From assembly GCA_964432915.1 (NCBI GenBank), contig CAYSPL010000014.1:1676-65675 (forward strand): a stretch of 64,000 nucleotides of DNA. Reading direction: 5' to 3'. Each line of letters starts with the position of its first letter. The stretch's first letter is position 1. Below are positions 10,231-54,834 of this stretch, piece after piece. The notes under the pieces are model-generated. The model was given only the letters and a program-made list of their open reading frames with translations, made no database searches and was not told where the DNA came from. Made by a program: the position numbers and the translations under genes. Source of the stretch: an uncultured Maribacter sp. GTDB taxonomy: Bacteria > Bacteroidota > Bacteroidia > Flavobacteriales > Flavobacteriaceae.

Positions 10231-10250
10231 CCTTCCCTAAAGGGAAAGGA
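10220..10250. repeat. Short palindromic repeat (GCCCCATCCTAACC plus TTCCCT-AA-AGGGAA hairpin) overlapping the pepP stop
   Basis: GC-rich hairpin in AT-rich context; loosely resembles the inverse of the large repeat 30 bp downstream. Confidence 0.5.
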
Positions 10251-10277: not shown

Positions 10278-10340
10278 AAAGCTCCTCCCCTTGGTTAAGG
10301 GGAGGTGGCTCCGCCTTTTGGCGGAGACGGAGGGGATGGT
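10278..10340 (+). repeat. 63-bp double-hairpin REP-like repeat, copy 1
   Basis: Identical to 11215-11277; hairpins CCTCCCCTT-GGTT-AAGGGGAGG and CTCCGCC-TTTT-GGCGGAG. Confidence 0.95.
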
Positions 10341-10399
10341 TTCATTGGGGAATAGCTTTTATTTGTTTAAGCACTTAAAAATCAGAATCTGTATTATAA

Positions 10400-11209
10400 A
10401 TGTTAAAAACGCTCTTCAAAATAAGTTTTCATTTATTAGTAACCGTGTTTTTGACAGTTGTTACTCAAATAGGGGGACTATTTTATTTGTTGACTTTTGT
10501 TATTGTCAAAAAGACAAGCACAAAATATCGATTGAAACGTTTGGTTTTTTTCTTACTCTTTTATCTCATTGCCACAATCATTTTTGTTCCAATAATCGCC
10601 CCAATATTTGGAAGAGAAAAAATAAAGAAATCCGATTTCATTGAAGCGAGAACATTTATGACTGATTTGACGAATCGAAATTATGTTCGGCCAGAATTGA
10701 ATGCATCACTTCAAAAAATAGCTAAGAGACTTGATACAACACACAGGGGCATTAAAGTGGTTTATTTGGATGCTAATTTTCCATTTATAAATAAATTTCC
10801 ATTGCTCCCTCATTTAAGTCACAATGATGGAAAGAAAATAGATATTTCATTAATATATCAAGATGAATCAGGGAAACTTACAAATAGGAAACCATCAGTT
10901 AGTGGGTATGGTTTTTTTGAAAAACCTAAATCTGGCGAATACGATCAAATCAAAAGATGTTTTGAAAAAGGTTATTGGCAATATGATTTTCCAAAGTATT
11001 TAACTTTCGGCACAATTAATTCGCATCTAAGTTTTTCTGAAAAAGCTACAAAAGATTTGATTAGAGAAATTTTGAAGCAACCCATTACAGGTAAATTGTT
11101 CATTGAACCTCATTTGAAAAATAGACTGAAATTGAACAATCCTAAAATCAGATTTCATGGCTGTCAGGCAGTTCGACATGATGACCACATTCATTTTCAG
11201 CTCAAGTAA
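10400..11209 (+). CDS. Membrane-anchored hypothetical protein, probable LAS-type (MepA/M74-like) zinc peptidase
   Basis: 269 aa; N-terminal TM segments, H-x6-D (SHNDGKKID) and C-terminal H-x-H (HDDHIH) motifs. Confidence 0.65.
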   Translation: MLKTLFKISFHLLVTVFLTVVTQIGGLFYLLTFVIVKKTSTKYRLKRLVFFLLFYLIATIIFVPIIAPIFGREKIKKSDFIEARTFMTDLTNRNYVRPELNASLQKIAKRLDTTHRGIKVVYLDANFPFINKFPLLPHLSHNDGKKIDISLIYQDESGKLTNRKPSVSGYGFFEKPKSGEYDQIKRCFEKGYWQYDFPKYLTFGTINSHLSFSEKATKDLIREILKQPITGKLFIEPHLKNRLKLNNPKIRFHGCQAVRHDDHIHFQLK

Positions 11210-11214
11210 ATTCC

Positions 11215-11277
11215 AAAGCTCCTCCCCTTGGTTAAGGGGAGGTGGCTCCGCCTTTTGGCGGAGACGGAGGGGATGGT
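11215..11277 (+). repeat. 63-bp double-hairpin REP-like repeat, copy 2
   Basis: Exact direct repeat of 10278-10340. Confidence 0.95.
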
Positions 11278-46801: not shown

Positions 46802-46859
46802 AAAGCTCCTCCCCTCAGATGAGGGGGGGTGGATGCGCTTTTCGCGCAGACGGAGGGGT
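46802..46859 (+). repeat. Diverged copy of the double-hairpin REP-like repeat
   Basis: AAAGCTCCTCCCCTC-AGAT-GAGGGGGGGTGG-ATGCGC-TTTTC-GCGCA-GACGGAGGGGT. Confidence 0.88.
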
Positions 46860-46905
46860 TTGACTTCTTATTCCCCATCTCGCGCTTCAATAAAGGCTCC
46901 TAATT

Positions 46906-47805: not shown

Positions 47806-50800
47806 ATGAAATTACGCTACAACCTTCTAGGGCTAGTTCTAGCTGCCCTTTTTCTATTGCCTTTGACTTCTGAGGCGCAAAGACGCAAAAAAGTACAACC
47901 CGTAATAACAGCTTTCGCTGAAGACCTCTACTCGAGCATGCAATACCGGTCTATTGGTCCACATCGTGGTGGACGTTCTGCGGCCGTAACTGGGGTTCCA
48001 GGTGAACCCAATCTCTTTTATTTTGGAGCTACTGGTGGTGGCGTTTGGAAGACCCTCGATGGTGGCCGCAGTTGGGAGAATATTTCCGATGGCTATTTTG
48101 GCGGTAGTATTGGTGCCGTTGAAGTGTCGAAAAGCGACCCCAATGTCATTTATGTGGGTGGGGGCGAAAAAACCCTAAGAGGTAATGTTTCCTCGGGTTA
48201 CGGTATTTGGAAAACGGAAGATGGGGGCAAAACATGGACTTCCGCAGGGCTCAAAAAGAGTCGACATGTACCTAGAATTAGAATCCACCCGACCAATTCA
48301 GATATTGTTTATGCCGCAGTACTCGGAAATATCTACAAACCAACCCAAGACCGTGGTATTTATAAAAGTACCGATGGCGGAAAAACATGGAGCAAAAAAT
48401 TGTTTGTCAATAACCAATCGGGTTTTGTTGATTTGACATTGGATCCTAATAACCCTAGAATATTATATGCTTCTTCATGGCGTGCAAAGCGTACGCCCTA
48501 TAGTTTGAGTAGTGGTGGAGATGGTTCTGCCTTGTGGAAAAGTACCGATAGTGGCGAGACTTGGACAGCGATTTCCAAAAATGAGGGCTTCCCGCAAGAC
48601 ACTTTAGGTATTATCGGGGTAACCGTTTCCCCAAAAAACTCAGAGCGTGTTTGGGCCATTGTGGAGAACAAGGAAAAAGGGGGACTCTATCGTTCTGAAG
48701 ATGGGGGTAAAAAATGGACACAAGTTAATAGTGAGCGGAAACTGCGTCAACGTGCTTGGTACTATACCCGTGTTTATGCAGATACCGAAGATGAAGATGT
48801 GGTGTATGTTCTGAACGTACGCTATCACAAATCTACCGATGGTGGTAAGAGCTTCAATACTTTCAACGCACCACATGGCGACCATCATGATTTGTGGATT
48901 TCGCCTGAAAATTCAAAACGCATGATCATTGGTGATGACGGTGGGGCACAGGTCAGTTATGATGGAGGCGAAACTTGGAGCACCTATTACAACCAGCCCA
49001 CCGCTCAGTATTATCGCGTAACAACTGATAATGCAACGCCTTACCGCATTTATGTGGCCCAGCAAGATAACTCCACTTTACGGGTAAACCACCGTTCAGA
49101 TGGAGGCGGAATCAGCGAAGACGATTGGGAGCCGACAGCAGGAGGTGAATCAGCACATATTGCCATTGATCCCACTGATAATGATATTGTGTACGGTGGT
49201 AGTTATGGTGGATTTTTAACCCGTGTTAATCACAAAACAGGAACCGTAAGAGGTATCAATGTATGGCCCGATAACCCTATGGGATATGGTGCAGAGGGAA
49301 TGAAATATCGTTTTCAATGGAATTTTCCGATTATGTTTTCTAAGCACGACCCCAAGAAATTGTACACCTTTTCACAGCATGTACATAGGAGCACCAACGA
49401 AGGGCAAAGTTGGGAAATTTTGTCTGATGATTTGACCCGCAATGACCCTTCTAAATTGGTTTCAAGTGGGGGGCCAATCACCCAAGATAATACCGGAGTA
49501 GAATACTACTGTACCATTTTCGCGGCAAATGAGAGTCCGTTGAAAGAAGGCTTGCTATGGGTGGGCAGTGATGATGGTTTGGTTCACGTTTCTCAAGATG
49601 GAGGGGCAAATTGGTCAAATGTCACGCCAAAAGGAATGCCCGAATGGATGATGATCAACAGTATTGAACCTTCGGCCTTTGACGAGGGAGCATGCTATGT
49701 GGCAGGCACGCGATATAAGCTTGGTGATTTCAAACCATACCTCTACAAAACCACGGATTACGGAAAAACATGGAAAAAAATAACGAACGGTATAAATTCA
49801 GAGCATTTTACGCGAGTGATTCGTGAGGATCCAAAAAGAAAAGGTTTACTCTATGCAGGCACCGAAACAGGAATGTATATTTCTTTTGACAATGGAGCAA
49901 ATTGGAATCCGTTTCAGTTGAATCTGCCGATTGTTCCGATTACCGATTTGGCCATTAAAGAGAACAACCTTATCGTAGCCACCCAAGGAAGAAGTTTATG
50001 GATTTTAGATGACCTTACCGTACTACATCAATTGGATGCGACGAAGAAAAGTATGGGGGCTATTTTGTATGCGCCAAAAGACGCGTTGCGAACCAAAGGT
50101 GGAGCGGCAAGTAAACCATCAAAAACACAGGGTATGAATCATCCGAACGGGGTAATTACGCATTTCTATCTAAAAAATTTCAATAAGAAAAAGGACACGG
50201 TGCAATTGACGTATACTACAATGGCAGGAGATACTTTGGCCAATTTTAGCACTAAAGCAAAGGATAAAAAATTTGTGCTGAGGGAAGTCGAAGCAGGAGG
50301 TAATACCCAAGTCTGGGATACCCGTGGCGAAAAAGCAGAAACTTTAAACGGAATGATTTTCTGGTGGGCCAATTTTTCGGGTCCAAAGGCAGTGCCAGGC
50401 ACTTACAAAGTTCATTTAAATGTCAATGGCTCAAATCAAACGCAAGAATTTAATATTATTCCGGATCCCCGCGCTGAGGCATCTGTTGCTGATATGCAAA
50501 AGCAACATGATTTCATTTCCGCAGTGAATGCCACGATCAATCGGGCACATGGTTCGATCAAGAAAATTCGTGGGGTCAATGCCCAGTTGGATGCCTTTAC
50601 CAAACAATATGCCTGGACTCCGCCCAGCACAGGCGTCGACAAAGAAGCAATAAAGGAATTGGTAGAAAAAGCCAAAACCATGAAAGAAGAGTTTGGAAAA
50701 ATCGAAAAGGCACTGTATCAGACTAAAAATAGGAGTAGACAAGACCCATTGAATTTCCCTATTCGCTTGACCAATAAGTTAGGCCATTTGAACAGCCTAG

Positions 50801-50973
50801 TGGGCTTGGATGACTTTCCGCCCACTGATCAAGATCTTGCCGTTCAAAAAGAATTGACCGGAAAAATTGAAACCCAATTGAAGGCTTTTGATGCCATGCT
50901 CGATTCTGAATTGAAAGAATTCAACAAGGCGTTTAATGAACTGAATTTGAATTATTTGTTTGTTGAGGAGTAG
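47806..50973 (+). CDS. Secreted BNR/Asp-box (VPS10-like) glycosyl hydrolase-like protein
   Basis: 1055 aa; signal peptide, RSIGPHRGGRS, many T.DGG.TW repeats, helical C-terminus. Confidence 0.88.
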   Translation: MKLRYNLLGLVLAALFLLPLTSEAQRRKKVQPVITAFAEDLYSSMQYRSIGPHRGGRSAAVTGVPGEPNLFYFGATGGGVWKTLDGGRSWENISDGYFGGSIGAVEVSKSDPNVIYVGGGEKTLRGNVSSGYGIWKTEDGGKTWTSAGLKKSRHVPRIRIHPTNSDIVYAAVLGNIYKPTQDRGIYKSTDGGKTWSKKLFVNNQSGFVDLTLDPNNPRILYASSWRAKRTPYSLSSGGDGSALWKSTDSGETWTAISKNEGFPQDTLGIIGVTVSPKNSERVWAIVENKEKGGLYRSEDGGKKWTQVNSERKLRQRAWYYTRVYADTEDEDVVYVLNVRYHKSTDGGKSFNTFNAPHGDHHDLWISPENSKRMIIGDDGGAQVSYDGGETWSTYYNQPTAQYYRVTTDNATPYRIYVAQQDNSTLRVNHRSDGGGISEDDWEPTAGGESAHIAIDPTDNDIVYGGSYGGFLTRVNHKTGTVRGINVWPDNPMGYGAEGMKYRFQWNFPIMFSKHDPKKLYTFSQHVHRSTNEGQSWEILSDDLTRNDPSKLVSSGGPITQDNTGVEYYCTIFAANESPLKEGLLWVGSDDGLVHVSQDGGANWSNVTPKGMPEWMMINSIEPSAFDEGACYVAGTRYKLGDFKPYLYKTTDYGKTWKKITNGINSEHFTRVIREDPKRKGLLYAGTETGMYISFDNGANWNPFQLNLPIVPITDLAIKENNLIVATQGRSLWILDDLTVLHQLDATKKSMGAILYAPKDALRTKGGAASKPSKTQGMNHPNGVITHFYLKNFNKKKDTVQLTYTTMAGDTLANFSTKAKDKKFVLREVEAGGNTQVWDTRGEKAETLNGMIFWWANFSGPKAVPGTYKVHLNVNGSNQTQEFNIIPDPRAEASVADMQKQHDFISAVNATINRAHGSIKKIRGVNAQLDAFTKQYAWTPPSTGVDKEAIKELVEKAKTMKEEFGKIEKALYQTKNRSRQDPLNFPIRLTNKLGHLNSLVGLDDFPPTDQDLAVQKELTGKIETQLKAFDAMLDSELKEFNKAFNELNLNYLFVEE

Positions 50974-51006: not shown

Positions 51007-51048
51007 GTCCTTCCCTGCAAAGGGGAGGTGCCCACAGGGCGGAGGGGT
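51007..51048 (+). repeat. REP-like unit A1 of the left inverted doublet
   Basis: GTCCTTCCCTGCAAAGGGGAGGTGCCCACAGGGCGGAGGGGT; 41 of 42 nt identical to 51532-51573. Confidence 0.95.
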
Positions 51049-51094
51049 CTTGGTAAGTTAATCTAAAAAGTTGAATCATTCGAGTTTCTAGCCT

Positions 51095-51139
51095 CTACCC
51101 CTCCGGCTGTCGCCACCTCCCCTTGAAAAAGGGGAGAAC
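51095..51139 (-). repeat. REP-like unit B1 of the left inverted doublet
   Basis: CTACCCCTCCGGCTGTCGCCACCTCCCCTTGAAAAAGGGGAGAAC; inverse orientation to A1, near-identical to 51621-51666. Confidence 0.93.
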
Positions 51140-51161
51140 CCATAGATTCAACTTTAGTATA

Positions 51162-51530
51162 ATGCCTGAAAAACTTAACAATCATAAATACTTAAAAGAG
51201 TTTAGAAAAGAGTTACGTAACAATCCAACAAAAGCTGAATCACAATTGTGGAAAGTGCTTCAAAAGAAGCAGTTAAATAGAAGAAGATTTAGACGACAGC
51301 ATAGCATTGGAAATTACATTCTTGATTTTTATTGTCCTGAAGAGAAATTAATAGTAGAACTTGATGGTCAGGTACATGACAATTTTGTAAATCAAGAATA
51401 CGATAGAAAAAGAGCAGAGTTTTTAGAGAGCTTAGGCTTTAAAGTTTTGCGTTTTGAAAACCATTTAGTCTTTGAACAATTAGACATGGTTCTAGAGGCC
51501 ATTAGAGCAGAATTTAAACTTGAAAAATAA
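51162..51530 (+). CDS. DUF559 family (Vsr-like) endonuclease domain protein
   Basis: 122 aa from ATG 51162; PTKAESQLW, FRRQHSIGNYILDFYC, IVELDGQVH, YDRKR, GFKVLRFEN. Confidence 0.92.
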   Translation: MPEKLNNHKYLKEFRKELRNNPTKAESQLWKVLQKKQLNRRRFRRQHSIGNYILDFYCPEEKLIVELDGQVHDNFVNQEYDRKRAEFLESLGFKVLRFENHLVFEQLDMVLEAIRAEFKLEK

Positions 51531-51531
51531 A

Positions 51532-51573
51532 GTCCTCCCCTGCAAAGGGGAGGTGCCCACAGGGCGGAGGGGT
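51532..51573 (+). repeat. REP-like unit A2 of the right inverted doublet
   Basis: GTCCTCCCCTGCAAAGGGGAGGTGCCCACAGGGCGGAGGGGT, starting 2 nt after the DUF559 stop. Confidence 0.95.
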
Positions 51574-51620
51574 TTTGTTGAAGTTGTCGAGAAGTTTTAG
51601 AAAATTTCAATATTGAATCG

Positions 51621-51666
51621 CTACCCCTCCGGCTATCGCCACCTCCCCTTTTTTCAAGGGGAGGAC
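51621..51666 (-). repeat. REP-like unit B2 of the right inverted doublet
   Basis: CTACCCCTCCGGCTATCGCCACCTCCCCTTTTTTCAAGGGGAGGAC. Confidence 0.93.
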
Positions 51667-51708: not shown

Positions 51709-54700
51709 ATGAAAAACCTAAAACTCCTAATCCTAGCCATTTTAACCACAACAATTACCTTCGCTCAAACGGCTGAAGAGTACTTCAAACCCATGAAATT
51801 CAGGAATATCGGTCCGTTTAGGGGCGGCCGCTCCGTTTCAGCATCTGGGGTTATTGGCGATCCCATGACCTATTATATGGGTACCACGGGTGGCGGACTT
51901 TGGAAGACCGAAGATGCGGGCCAGCGTTGGTACAATATTTCAGACGGTTATTTTGAAATGGGTTCGGTGGGTGCCGTTGCGGTTTCTACCTACAATTCAA
52001 ATATTGTTTATGTGGGCATGGGCGAGCATGCACCGCGAGGGGTTATGACTTCCTATGGAGATGGGGTTTATAAATCTACCGATGCCGGAAAAACATGGAA
52101 GCATTTGGGATTGGGGAAAACACATCACATTTCACGAATAGTCATTCATCCCACCAATCCAGATATTGTTTATGTGGCGGCACAAGGGCAATTGTATGGC
52201 CCCAACAAAGAACGCGGAATTTATAAATCTACCGACGGGGGAAAATCTTGGAAAAACGTGCTTTTTGTCAATGATTTGACAGGATGCTCTGAACTTTCAA
52301 TCGATGCGAATTATCCTGAAATTATGTATGCCGCCATGTGGCAGCATCAACGCAAACCGAATATGGTAATCAGTGGTGGCGAAGGCAGCGGATTATACAA
52401 ATCAACAGATGCCGGCGAAACATGGACGGAGATGACCGAAGGTCTTCCTGAAGAAAAAGGAAAAATGGCGATTTCTGTGAGTCCGGCGAACTCCAACAAA
52501 GTGTATGCGTTGATTGAAAGCGATTCGAATCAAGATAAAGGCGGACTCTTCGTTTCAAACAATGCTGGGAAATCGTGGCGCATGGTCAGTGGCGATAATA
52601 GATTGGTGCAGCGTGCTTGGTACTATATCGAAGTATTCACAGATCCCCAAGATGAGGATATTGTGTATGTCTTGAGTGCTCCGGCACTTCGTTCTTTGGA
52701 TGGCGGTAAAAACTGGGAACGTATTACTGGCACCCATGGCGATTTTCATGATTTATGGATCAATCCGAAAAATTCGTTGAATATGGTCATTGCCAATGAT
52801 GGTGGTGCGGCGGTTACTTTTGACTTCGGAAAAACATGGTCGTCACAAGTGAACATGCCCACCGGGCAGTTTTATCGCATCAACACAGACAATCTTTTTC
52901 CGTATAACATTTATGCCGGTCAGCAAGACTATTCTTCGGCCATGATTGCCAATATGTCCGTTGGAAGAGGGGGCATTACCATGTCTGATTTTAGTCCGTC
53001 TGCTGGTGGTGAAAGTGCCTTTTTGGCCTTTGATCCAGATAACCCAAGGTATGTGATGGGGGGAAGTTATTTAGGCACTATTGATGTTTTGGATATGGAA
53101 TCAAAAGCATCGACCCAAGTCATGGCAGCGCCCATTCAGTATTTGGGAAGGGAAGCGCGAAATATGAAGTATTTGTACAATTGGAATGCCCCGACCTTGC
53201 GTTCGCAGCACGAGGAAAATACATTTTACCATGGCGCACAGTTGCTTTTGAGAACACGAGATATGGGGGTAACCTGGGAAGAAATGTCTCCTGATTTGAC
53301 TCGTGATATCGATGCGAAACAAGGCAATGGAGGCGGCCCCTACACCAATGAAGCTGTAGGAGCGGAGAATTATGGTACCTTGGCCTACGTATTGGAATCG
53401 CCTCACGAGGCGGGTATCTTTTACACGGGTAGTGATGACGGATACGTGCACATTACCAAAGACAATGGCGAAAGTTGGCAGAACATAACACCCAAAAACT
53501 TGGGCGAATCTTTGGTCAATGCGATCGAAGTGTCTCCGCATGACAAGGCAACGGTTTATTTGGCGACTACAAAGTACAAGTTCAACGATCATACGCCGGC
53601 GATTTACAAGAGTACTGATTATGGAAAAACATGGATGAATATTTCTTCAGGAATTCCCTATGGATCTTTTACAAGAGTGGTGCGTGAAGACCCGATCCGT
53701 AAGAACTTATTATACGCAGGTACTGAAAAGGGGCTTTATATTTCATGGAATGGTGGAAAAAGCTGGAAACCTTTTCAGTTGAACTTGCCAAAAACCCCAA
53801 TAACCGATATCAAAATACATCAAGGCAATTTGATTGTGGCAACTTCAGGAAGGGCCTTTTGGATTTTGGATGACCTTTCGATGCTAAGTAGATATCAACC
53901 CACCGAAAAGGGCATGAAATTGTATCAACCCAATGATGCCATGAACGGTCCTTGGTATGGTCCTATGAGCGGAAATATTGATAATTTTAAGGGAATGAGT
54001 GTTTGGTCTGGAATAAATCCCGCAAACGGAATGGTATTGTTTTATGAACTACCTGAATTGAATGATAGTATTCCTTTGACCATGGAAATCAAAGATACAA
54101 ACGGAAAGCTCGTGCGAAGTTTTTCCTCAGAAAAAGATAAAAACTACAAACCGCACAATGGCGGTGGACCTAGAAGGGCGCCCACTTTGCCAAAGAAGAA
54201 AGGTTTGAATCGATTTGTGTGGAATATGCAAACACCTATTTTGCCTGGTGTACCCAACACCTATATTGAATCGCGATTCTCAGGACATGTTGTGCCTCCA
54301 GGAACCTATACTGTTAACCTGAAAGCGGGTCAACAATCGGCAACGACTACCGGAAAGATTGTGGCCATGCCTACCTATAAAACTACTCCCGAACAATATG
54401 CCGAGTACCATGCCTTTATGACTGAGATGGAGGCACGCCTAACAGAAATGCATAACACTGTGAATTCACTTTACAAGGCAAAACAGCAAATCGAAGAGGT
54501 ATTGAAAGATATAAATGATGAAATGGTCAAATCGGTTGGAGAAAAGCTATTAAAAGATCTCGATGCTTGGGATAAAGACATGATTCAACGTAAATCTAAG
54601 GCCTATGATGATGTGGAGAACTTCCCCAATAAATTTACGGCGGAGTATCTCTTTTTGATCGATGCGACCAACAGTACTATTCCGAGAGTGAACCAAGCTT

Positions 54701-54834
54701 CCAAAGACCGTAAGTCAGAACTTGATGCGCAATGGAAAACATTGAAAAGTAGGGCTGATGTATTCAAGAACACAGAAATTCCTGCATTCAATAATAAACT
54801 TTGGGTATCTGGAGTTGGTGCCATTAGGTTTTAG
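51709..54834 (+). CDS. Secreted BNR/Asp-box (VPS10-like) glycosyl hydrolase-like protein, paralog of 47806-50973
   Basis: 1041 aa; [35 protein letters not shown] shared with the upstream paralog. Confidence 0.88.

Follow-up and report, generated by a model that had tools for sequence, protein, structure and literature searches.

Why should a lone nuclease gene be bracketed on both sides by pairs of inverted, structured repeats? The question is raised by a 64,000-nucleotide stretch of contig CAYSPL010000014.1 from an uncultured Maribacter species (hereafter the window), in which a gene of the DUF559 family lies between two BNR genes, with a doublet of repeat units on either side. We interpret this block (51007–51666) as a resident copy of a widespread gene-repeat partnership in which a YcjD-type DUF559 nuclease would act with its flanking units, themselves predicted to fold as DNA triplexes, and we give this reading a slightly better than even chance of being correct. 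The features of the locus are listed below. Each unit has a first hairpin (P1), a second, smaller hairpin (P2), and a tail; P2 and its adjoining bases, between P1 and the tail, make up loop 2.

47806–50973, forward strand: upstream BNR/Sortilin-Vps10 gene, context that sets the insertion site
51007–51048, forward strand: unit A1, with hairpin CCTTCCCT-GCAA-AGGGGAGG, TG, mini-hairpin CCCACAGGG, C, and mirror tail GGAGGGG; in the predicted DNA fold P1 and P2 form and the tail is unpaired
51049–51094, no strand: spacer 1, 46 nt
51095–51139, reverse strand: unit B1, B type, loop 2 = GCGACAGC, of the A1 family in inverted orientation
51162–51530, forward strand: DUF559 gene (YcjD family, Vsr-like PD-(D/E)XK fold), 122 aa
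51532–51573, forward strand: unit A2, A type, beginning 1 nt past the DUF559 stop codon
51574–51620, no strand: spacer 2, 47 nt
51621–51666, reverse strand: unit B2, B type, loop 2 = GCGATAGC
51709–54834, forward strand: downstream paralogous BNR/Sortilin-Vps10 gene, context

This layout agrees with a first-pass annotation made from the sequence alone, which had placed inverted doublets around the DUF559 open reading frame (ORF); every feature that it described was found in place. As it had claimed, A1 and A2 match at all but one of 42 positions, B1 and B2 are near-identical (a common 30-nt core at 97%), the cassette's outer ends (GTCCTTCCCT and AGGGGAGGAC) are inverted, and the flanking genes are paralogous, both encoding ~1050 aa with identical BNR/Sortilin-Vps10 architecture. 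Its description of the spacers as matched in length but unrelated in sequence held for the lengths only, since the two are weakly alike (a common 5′ stretch of ~22 nt; global p=0.07). Homology between the paired spacers is clear in Maribacter relatives (186 nt at 85%), and those in the window are probably shortened, diverged remnants of such homologous spacers; spacer 1 probably derives in this way from the 150–200 nt spacer found in other Maribacter. Maribacter doublets pair two loop-2 types, A (CCC(G/A)CAGGG) and B (GCGA(C/T)AGC), which are kept across species. The 27-nt unit core occurred twice in the window, compared with 0 expected from 100 shuffles, and, in correction of the first-pass annotation, the repeat family extends beyond the DUF559 locus, with three further units in the window. 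Rfam returned no family at gathering thresholds in the window or nine related loci, and permissive thresholds gave only chance matches to microRNA hairpins.

The encoded protein matched the DUF559 profile (PF04480) over positions 2–107 of 109 (E=8.6e-36), in agreement with the identity first assigned to it, and matched structure 3HRL (E=1.6e-21). Residues D55, E66, D68, and H72 were invariant in 16 homologues. The only other Pfam match was a weak one to MTES_1575 REase, which bears out the earlier view that the enzyme is not an HUH transposase. Pfam gave no match of the protein to the Vsr family, and its gene neighbors in the 64-kb window are BNR genes, not the Dcm-type cytosine methyltransferase with which a Vsr very-short-patch repair endonuclease is paired. 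We note that I-Bth0305I, a Vsr-like EDxHD enzyme, has been grouped with DUF559 (PMC3424549).

The units share a strict order of blocks: a pyrimidine arm, loop 1, and the complementary purine arm (together P1), then TG, the small variable P2 hairpin, C or AC, and a G-rich tail, usually followed by TT. Alignment of units from the window and its relatives showed the tail to be a reversed, uncomplemented copy of the purine arm. The mirror relation covaried exactly in at least eight subtypes, including AAGGGGAGG with GGAGGGGTT, AAGGAGGGG with GGGGTGGTT, AAGGGAAGG with GGAAGGGT, AAGGAGGAG with GAGGTGGTT, and AAGGGGAGA with AGAGGGGTT. In a mirror test without preselected tails, covering 442 strand-records of perfect pyrimidine/purine hairpins in 1.46 Mb, a perfect 7/7 mirror of the purine arm was found 4–70 nt downstream in 185 records, compared with control counts of 24 (direct copy downstream), 9 (mirror upstream), and 13 (direct copy upstream). 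The layout of pyrimidine arm, purine arm, and mirror purine block was present in all seven window units and in 451 distinct units overall. Across these 451, the mirror run was 7–13 nt long (mode 9), the tail base opposite an A:T pair was T 875 times and A 445 times, and the P2 stem averaged 4.1 bp, compared with 2.0 bp after shuffling. The blocks follow the purine-motif rule for a third strand, which runs antiparallel to the purine strand and places G on G:C and A or T on A:T. Units were found with a pattern detector of measured background, since varying loop length caused MAFFT to misalign the 5′ arm.

From these sequence features, the window units are repeats of the kind known as BoxC, potential intrastrand triplex (PIT), or triplex motif (TM), predicted to form purine-motif triplexes within one strand. 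They represent a variant because loop 2 is long and contains a stem. Loop 1 measures 4–6 nt, but loop 2 reaches 11–12 nt in the units of the DUF559 locus and 23 nt in the unit at 10280, which exceeds the loop lengths used to define BoxC/PIT/TM units (1–6 nt in the ITxF search and, as given in the same source, 0–10 nt in Hoyne et al. 2000; PMC4666352). Judged by those stated limits, the Bacteroidota units, whose loop 2 consists of TG, a small covarying hairpin, and C (11–30 nt), were probably outside both searches. The loop-2 hairpin variant appears to be undescribed in the literature that we searched. In predicted DNA folds, P1 and P2 form and the tail stays free, or a doublet can form a single long hairpin instead, although the tools model Watson-Crick pairs only.

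Other structures fitted the units less well. An RNA triple helix on the C-rich strand would place A in two thirds of the positions where an A:T duplex needs U and would require runs of protonated C, while the G-rich strand is consistent with the purine motif throughout. A G-quadruplex is less likely, given the mirror covariation of the A positions and the existence of subtypes with just two long G runs. We rejected intrinsic terminators, since no T run follows the hairpins, and the sequence features ruled out reading the units as classical repetitive extragenic palindromic (REP) elements with their REP-associated tyrosine transposases (RAYTs) or as integron attC sites.

The REP comparison deserves attention because the first-pass annotation had called the units REP doublets (REPINs) and the cassette REPtron-like. 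REP units, as outlined in one source, carry a conserved GTAG or CGTC tag beside the palindrome (PMC3733652). The window units have no such tag and carry a mirror third block instead, so the REPIN label was replaced by BoxC/PIT/TM. The analogy did hold for layout. As in REPIN-RAYT systems, a nuclease gene, present as one copy in most loci here, is flanked by inverted structured repeats that are dispersed, in doublets and singly, in many more copies, the doublets have spacers, and residence in the lineage is long and vertical. It did not hold for family membership or chemistry: the enzyme is a Vsr-like PD-(D/E)XK hydrolase, not an HUH Y1 transposase, and cannot rejoin DNA itself; the repeats have a putative triplex-forming third block; and the module, which spans phyla at 55%–65% identity, additionally inserts in frame within genes. 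It is very improbable that DUF559 is a bystander while an HUH transposase or integrase elsewhere in the genome moves the units, even though spaced inverted doublets and repeat-bracketed cassettes resemble REPINs and attC arrays and a RAYT could lie outside the 64 kb viewed. Adjacent integron attC copies typically differ, whereas the bracketing repeats here are near-identical. In published work, no transposase or integrase was reported close to TM sites (PMC4666352).

The published record on these repeats is substantial. BoxC repeats were noted in E. coli in the 1990s and, in the history given by PMC4666352, renamed PIT elements in 2000 by Hoyne et al.; Holder et al. 2015 termed them TMs, reported them in more than 260 genomes, and supported the triplex fold of the E. 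coli consensus (TM_ECO) by circular dichroism and nuclear magnetic resonance (PMC4666352). Much of that description applies to the window family: pyrimidine-purine-purine blocks on one strand, a G-rich third block mirroring the purine arm (purine-motif class II), multiple and mostly intergenic copies, and inverted pairs, one member of which, in TMs, always has a loop 2 of type A and the other a loop 2 of type B. TM loci are also tied to sequence variability and rearrangements, and TM no. 9 adjoins ycjD. A partner gene or a mobility function has not been reported in this work, and the DUF559 link, the in-frame module, and the in-frame single units described below are absent from it. In Holder et al. 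2015, DUF559 is unmentioned and ycjD is only a flank entry in a supplementary table (PMC4666352). We found no report of the link under DUF559, ycjD, the unit sequences, or later triplex papers, a search whose coverage is incomplete and whose silence is not proof. The earlier statement that no such system had been described therefore stands for the gene-repeat link and the in-frame module, which appear to be undescribed in the literature searched, but not for the repeats themselves.

The link between gene and units is clearest when many genomes are compared. We fetched 80 loci with DUF559 proteins 55%–83% identical, on contigs representing one genome per species, from many Flavobacteriaceae genera, Pedobacter, Adhaeribacter, Pontibacter, Ignavibacteriota-like metagenome-assembled genomes (MAGs), and Acidobacteriota. 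The first-pass annotation had proposed looking for an enrichment of units around DUF559 genes, and it was pronounced: under strict detection, 165 of 190 units were within 400 nt of a DUF559 ORF, a zone that made up 7.8% of the 1.46 Mb. With a looser detector (background 0.028 per 600 bp), all 78 evaluable loci had units within 300 nt, 60 of them on both sides and 18 on one. Direct repeats of at least 30 nt between the two 400-nt flanks were found for 28 of 77 DUF559 genes, compared with 3 of 300 control genes at these loci. Units to the left of the gene consistently differed in subtype from those to its right. Among distant homologues (35%–50% identity), units were within ~60 nt of the gene in 10 of 11 examined; these homologues included E. 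coli ycjD, the Neisseria gonorrhoeae protein of structure 3HRL, and genes from plasmids of Picosynechococcus, Pseudanabaena, and Synechocystis and from Photobacterium, Azospirillum, Deinococcus, Sphingomonas, and Sinorhizobium. The pairing of gene and repeat is specific, ancient, and general across phyla.

Several of the distant loci had distinctive arrangements. In Photobacterium sp. GJ3 (L335, 3370–5010), ~11 near-identical ~150-bp doublets of triplex-type units were arrayed directly downstream of the DUF559 homologue. On a Synechocystis sp. B12 plasmid (L340, 2328–4852), the DUF559 gene and its units lay between a 525-nt fragment of a DUF1156 (methyltransferase-type) gene and a downstream ORF, as if splitting that gene, and on pAQ6 of PCC 7002 (L329) they lay just upstream of an intact DUF1156 gene.

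The units sit very close to the gene, 0–40 nt before its start and 0–20 nt after its stop. Among 61 free-standing genes, 32 had the complement of a unit tail starting within 6 nt of the stop codon, and in six of these it supplied the TAA. Such short distances from start and stop could also be expected if the units served the gene in cis, as autoregulatory sites, insulators, or stabilizers of a potentially toxic nuclease, with the dispersed copies as by-products. The conservation of stems and tails where synonymous sites are saturated is compatible with such a role, but we consider it improbable: the units are far more numerous than the gene, occur as in-frame insertions in unrelated genes, and keep their positions when the module is translated inside other genes. 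Promoter or terminator activity was also absent from PIT elements in earlier work, as cited in PMC4666352.

The gene and two inverted units form a discrete module with defined ends that occupies many sites. In 10–11 of the 80 loci, a ~0.5-kb U(+)-DUF559-U(-) segment (U, unit) lay in frame within a long ORF, without a start or stop of its own, and its units were translated as linkers reading SSPPxKGGV... and ...PPRPSDTPPxKGGE. In L054, a type IIG enzyme of 1425 aa has the DUF559 domain (residues 692–795) nested in its Eco57I methylase domain, and in L079 the nesting is in a Type_ISP_C domain. Three taxa shared an identical insertion site for the in-frame module. Alignment of uninterrupted homologues (...LLKNAYYK-NS-TELETLPNID...) with occupied ones (...AYYK[module]LRELETLPNID...) places the ends of the module at the outer ends of the two P1 hairpins, and Eco57I-family hosts exist with and without it, as occupied and empty alleles. 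Across 83 loci we counted 55 distinct neighbor contexts, several of them conserved across genera.

This behavior overlaps in part with that of known elements. Homing endonuclease genes, whether free-standing or nested (including I-Bth0305I), are likewise small, selfish-looking nuclease genes with presence/absence polymorphism, replacement at one site, and a single insertion site in homologous restriction-modification genes of different taxa. In contrast, DUF559 has its own terminal structured repeats, which are abundant independently, and no intron or intein was found around it: Pfam gave no Hint domain in the L054 and L079 hosts, and Rfam gave no intron in the window and nine related loci. 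Compared with insertion sequences and miniature inverted-repeat transposable elements (MITEs), inverted ends are present, but single units have no consistent duplication around them and the encoded protein is not a DDE enzyme. Rickettsia palindromic elements are also short palindromic repeats placed in frame in protein genes and translated as extra peptide segments, but the units here differ in sequence, have a triplex-type third block and an associated nuclease gene, and span a much wider taxonomic range.

Some loci carry tandem identical DUF559 genes separated by unit-containing repeats, with three copies on a Kapabacteria chromosome (L034, 10001–12049) and two in Gelidibacter salicanalis (L063, 9445–10357). 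Together with whole-doublet direct repeats, such arrays are the expected product of homologous recombination at repeats, and they bring in the main rival to our reading, passive capture: TM units would be recombination-prone landing pads where small accessory genes, with DUF559 simply the most frequent, integrate at or between units by host recombination, and the nuclease would be inactive on them. Rearrangements around TM loci without a mobility gene nearby (PMC4666352) fit this account, as does a 269-aa non-DUF559 ORF that is bracketed by identical units in the window. We nevertheless regard passive capture as unlikely, though it is the strongest of the alternatives. It leaves unexplained why one small gene family has units in 78 of 78 loci, in at least six phyla and at 35%–85% identity, why a unit end touches or overlaps the stop codon, why the units on the two sides consistently differ in subtype, and why gene and units were swapped jointly in L045, a relative described next.

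The history of the window locus combines stability with replacement. The BNR|DUF559|BNR arrangement is common to Maribacter species, a Croceivirga MAG, and an Aggregatimonas MAG. Among DUF559 orthologues in this arrangement, the ratio of nonsynonymous to synonymous substitution rates (dN/dS) was 0.01–0.09, with dS at 0.4–1.9 or saturated, and the purine arm, TG, and tail were invariant in 16–17 of 17 units, whose loop 1 had eight variants. Since dN/dS is low and the arm, TG, and tail are invariant despite this divergence, selection maintains both gene and units. The empty BNR|BNR site between the two hydrolase genes, which the first-pass annotation had proposed seeking in close relatives, was found in three related genomes, with 9–119 nt between the BNR genes and no unit. 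In one of them (L326), BNR2 is 85.6% identical to that of the window, as close as in DUF559-bearing Maribacter. In L045 (BNR2 87.7%), the layout is as in the window, but DUF559 is only 58% identical and the units are of other subtypes. These comparisons indicate that gene and units have been gained, lost, or replaced together at the BNR|BNR site. The mobility suggested for this locus is supported by empty and swapped sites in relatives but not by recent movement in Maribacter, where it is inherited vertically under purifying selection. The neighborhood is variable beyond the DUF559 site: in Maribacter sp. 2308TA10-17 (L003, 59–1259), a HindIII-type restriction gene, a helix-turn-helix regulator, and a methyltransferase directly precede the BNR pair, in place of the genes found there in the window.

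E. coli offers a view of copy number. K-12 has one ycjD and 23 TMs, and TM_ECO no. 9 (1351239–1351204) lies 168 nt past the ycjD stop. At the 3′ end of K-12 ycjD (L334, 3908–3925), a decayed second unit encodes the final codons and the TGA stop, which falls in the loop of that unit. K-12 lacks 12 nt (CACCCCAACCCT) found in strain KE47, which fits the "12 nt longer ycjD" reported for ST69/ST182. The gap between sapF and fabI is occupied by either ycjD or the eefRABCD operon, with ycjD in phylogroups A, B1, and C and two other sequence types (PMC12817139). Published TM counts are 1–2 in CFT073, UTI89, S88, and similar strains, 19–30 in K-12, BL21, IAI1, W, and similar strains, and 6–15 in others (PMC4666352). 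We searched TM no. 9 and ycjD against 5,426 complete E. coli genomes and found ycjD in 3,377. In an evenly spaced sample of 59 chromosomes, ycjD-positive genomes had 12–29 further TM places (median 20) and ycjD-negative genomes 1–20 (median 4; Mann-Whitney p=3e-9), in line with the earlier proposal that repeat copy number would correlate with DUF559 presence. This about five-fold excess runs counter to the idea of a host repair factor, in which a domesticated Vsr-like DUF559 removes or resolves triplex or hairpin replication blocks and so counteracts the repeats, since fewer or equal repeats would then be expected with the gene. Strong purifying selection, long vertical residence, and the Vsr-like fold suit that idea, as does the block to DNA polymerase that PIT elements impose in vitro according to work cited in PMC4666352. 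The in-frame module, the many contexts, and the cross-phylum spread do not, and we give the idea little credence.

How, then, might gene and repeats work together? In the mechanism that we propose, DUF559 would recognize the folded or duplex unit and nick or cut there, and host recombination or repair would copy units, along with the gene between them, into broken or homologous sites. Joining is left to host recombination or repair because a PD-(D/E)XK fold only hydrolyzes DNA and cannot rejoin it. The layout would resemble that of RAYT/REPIN and the chemistry that of homing. Flanking direct repeats and tandem arrays would follow from this, as would the swapping of modules at one site and the instability that has been reported for the surroundings of TM loci. 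A bolder version, for which our confidence falls a little short of even, is that YcjD-type DUF559 is the missing enzyme of BoxC/PIT/TM, and that the two constitute a new class of mobile or self-maintaining element, with a triplex- or hairpin-reading PD-(D/E)XK nuclease, copying by host repair, and in-frame insertion. DUF559 is the first candidate partner enzyme for BoxC/PIT/TM, whose origin and spread lack explanation, and a link between these repeats and DUF559, a large family whose structure is solved, supplies both with a function that can be tested in tractable E. coli. If the proposal is correct, an enzyme class that is neither HUH nor DDE joins the systems that propagate repeats, a natural protein may read DNA triplexes, and short in-frame peptide insertions in unrelated proteins and the genomic instability around TM loci are explained.

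Several observations weigh against this interpretation. Action of DUF559 on the repeats, whether by binding or by cutting units, is proposed from sequence. We sought a target-site duplication around in-frame single units and found no consistent one, and no cleavage site emerged. The gene occurs in either orientation relative to the units: the commonest layout, with U(+) just upstream and U(-) just downstream, was seen in 15 loci, and the U(-) gene U(+) layout of the window in four. Within Maribacter, the locus looks purely vertical. The E. coli correlation tracks phylogroups and so rests on few independent events, and ycjD-negative E. coli retain 1–20 TM copies, so that units persist without the gene nearby. 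An ORF unrelated to DUF559 is bracketed by units in the same window. Finally, in an exact-pattern scan of metagenome and viral contigs, among the matches listed, DUF559 lay within 600 nt of the units at no more than 3 of the 59 metagenome loci with full units and at 1 of the 33 viral loci. By rough estimate, this is far above chance for a roughly single-copy gene. In the viral locus with DUF559, the units were spaced as in the full module.

The units greatly outnumber the gene, with most of those in nature lying far from any DUF559 gene, and also exist alone as MITE-like copies. Many scanned units were at contig ends, and those in phage contigs were intergenic and mostly antisense to neighboring genes. 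One phage subfamily, CCTCCCCTGTGTAAGGGGAGGTG-P2-CGGAGGGGTTG (L255, L262, L287, L321), occupied successive intergenic gaps of structural gene clusters with compensatory P2 variation. Single units of 45–51 nt also lay in frame in genes (L189, 1985–2033; L134, 3094–3142 and 5868–5916; L288, 1486–1530). By eye, from the flanking translation, the hosts resemble an acyl-CoA synthetase, two subunits of xanthine dehydrogenase, and a phage portal protein. In the acyl-CoA-synthetase-like and xanthine-dehydrogenase-like genes the inserts read SPP(Y/F)EGGV..., and several in-frame single units had common flanks, AGCT...TCTC.

The three further units in the window are the following.

10280–10338, forward strand: unit with a long P2 hairpin (GCTCCGCC-TTTT-GGCGGAGA), the left direct repeat of a second cassette
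11217–11275, forward strand: unit identical to that at 10280, 59 nt, the right direct repeat; the two bracket the 269-aa ORF (10400–11209)
46804–46860, forward strand: solitary unit between convergent genes, its P2 stem differing by compensatory changes

The P2 stem is TGCGC/GCGCA in the 46804 unit and CTCCGCC/GGCGGAG in the 10280 unit, with pairing preserved. The second cassette (10280–11275) thus consists of two identical 59-nt units in direct orientation around a non-DUF559 ORF, for which Pfam and PADLOC gave no match; the ORF has N-terminal membrane segments and a C-terminal HDDHIH motif. Its neighbors are an aminopeptidase P gene and a branched-chain amino-acid transporter gene. Directly 3′ of the aminopeptidase stop, at 10231–10250, is a small separate hairpin (CCTTCCCTAAAGGGAAGG) with a P1-like pyrimidine-purine arm, at which no mirror tail was noticed.

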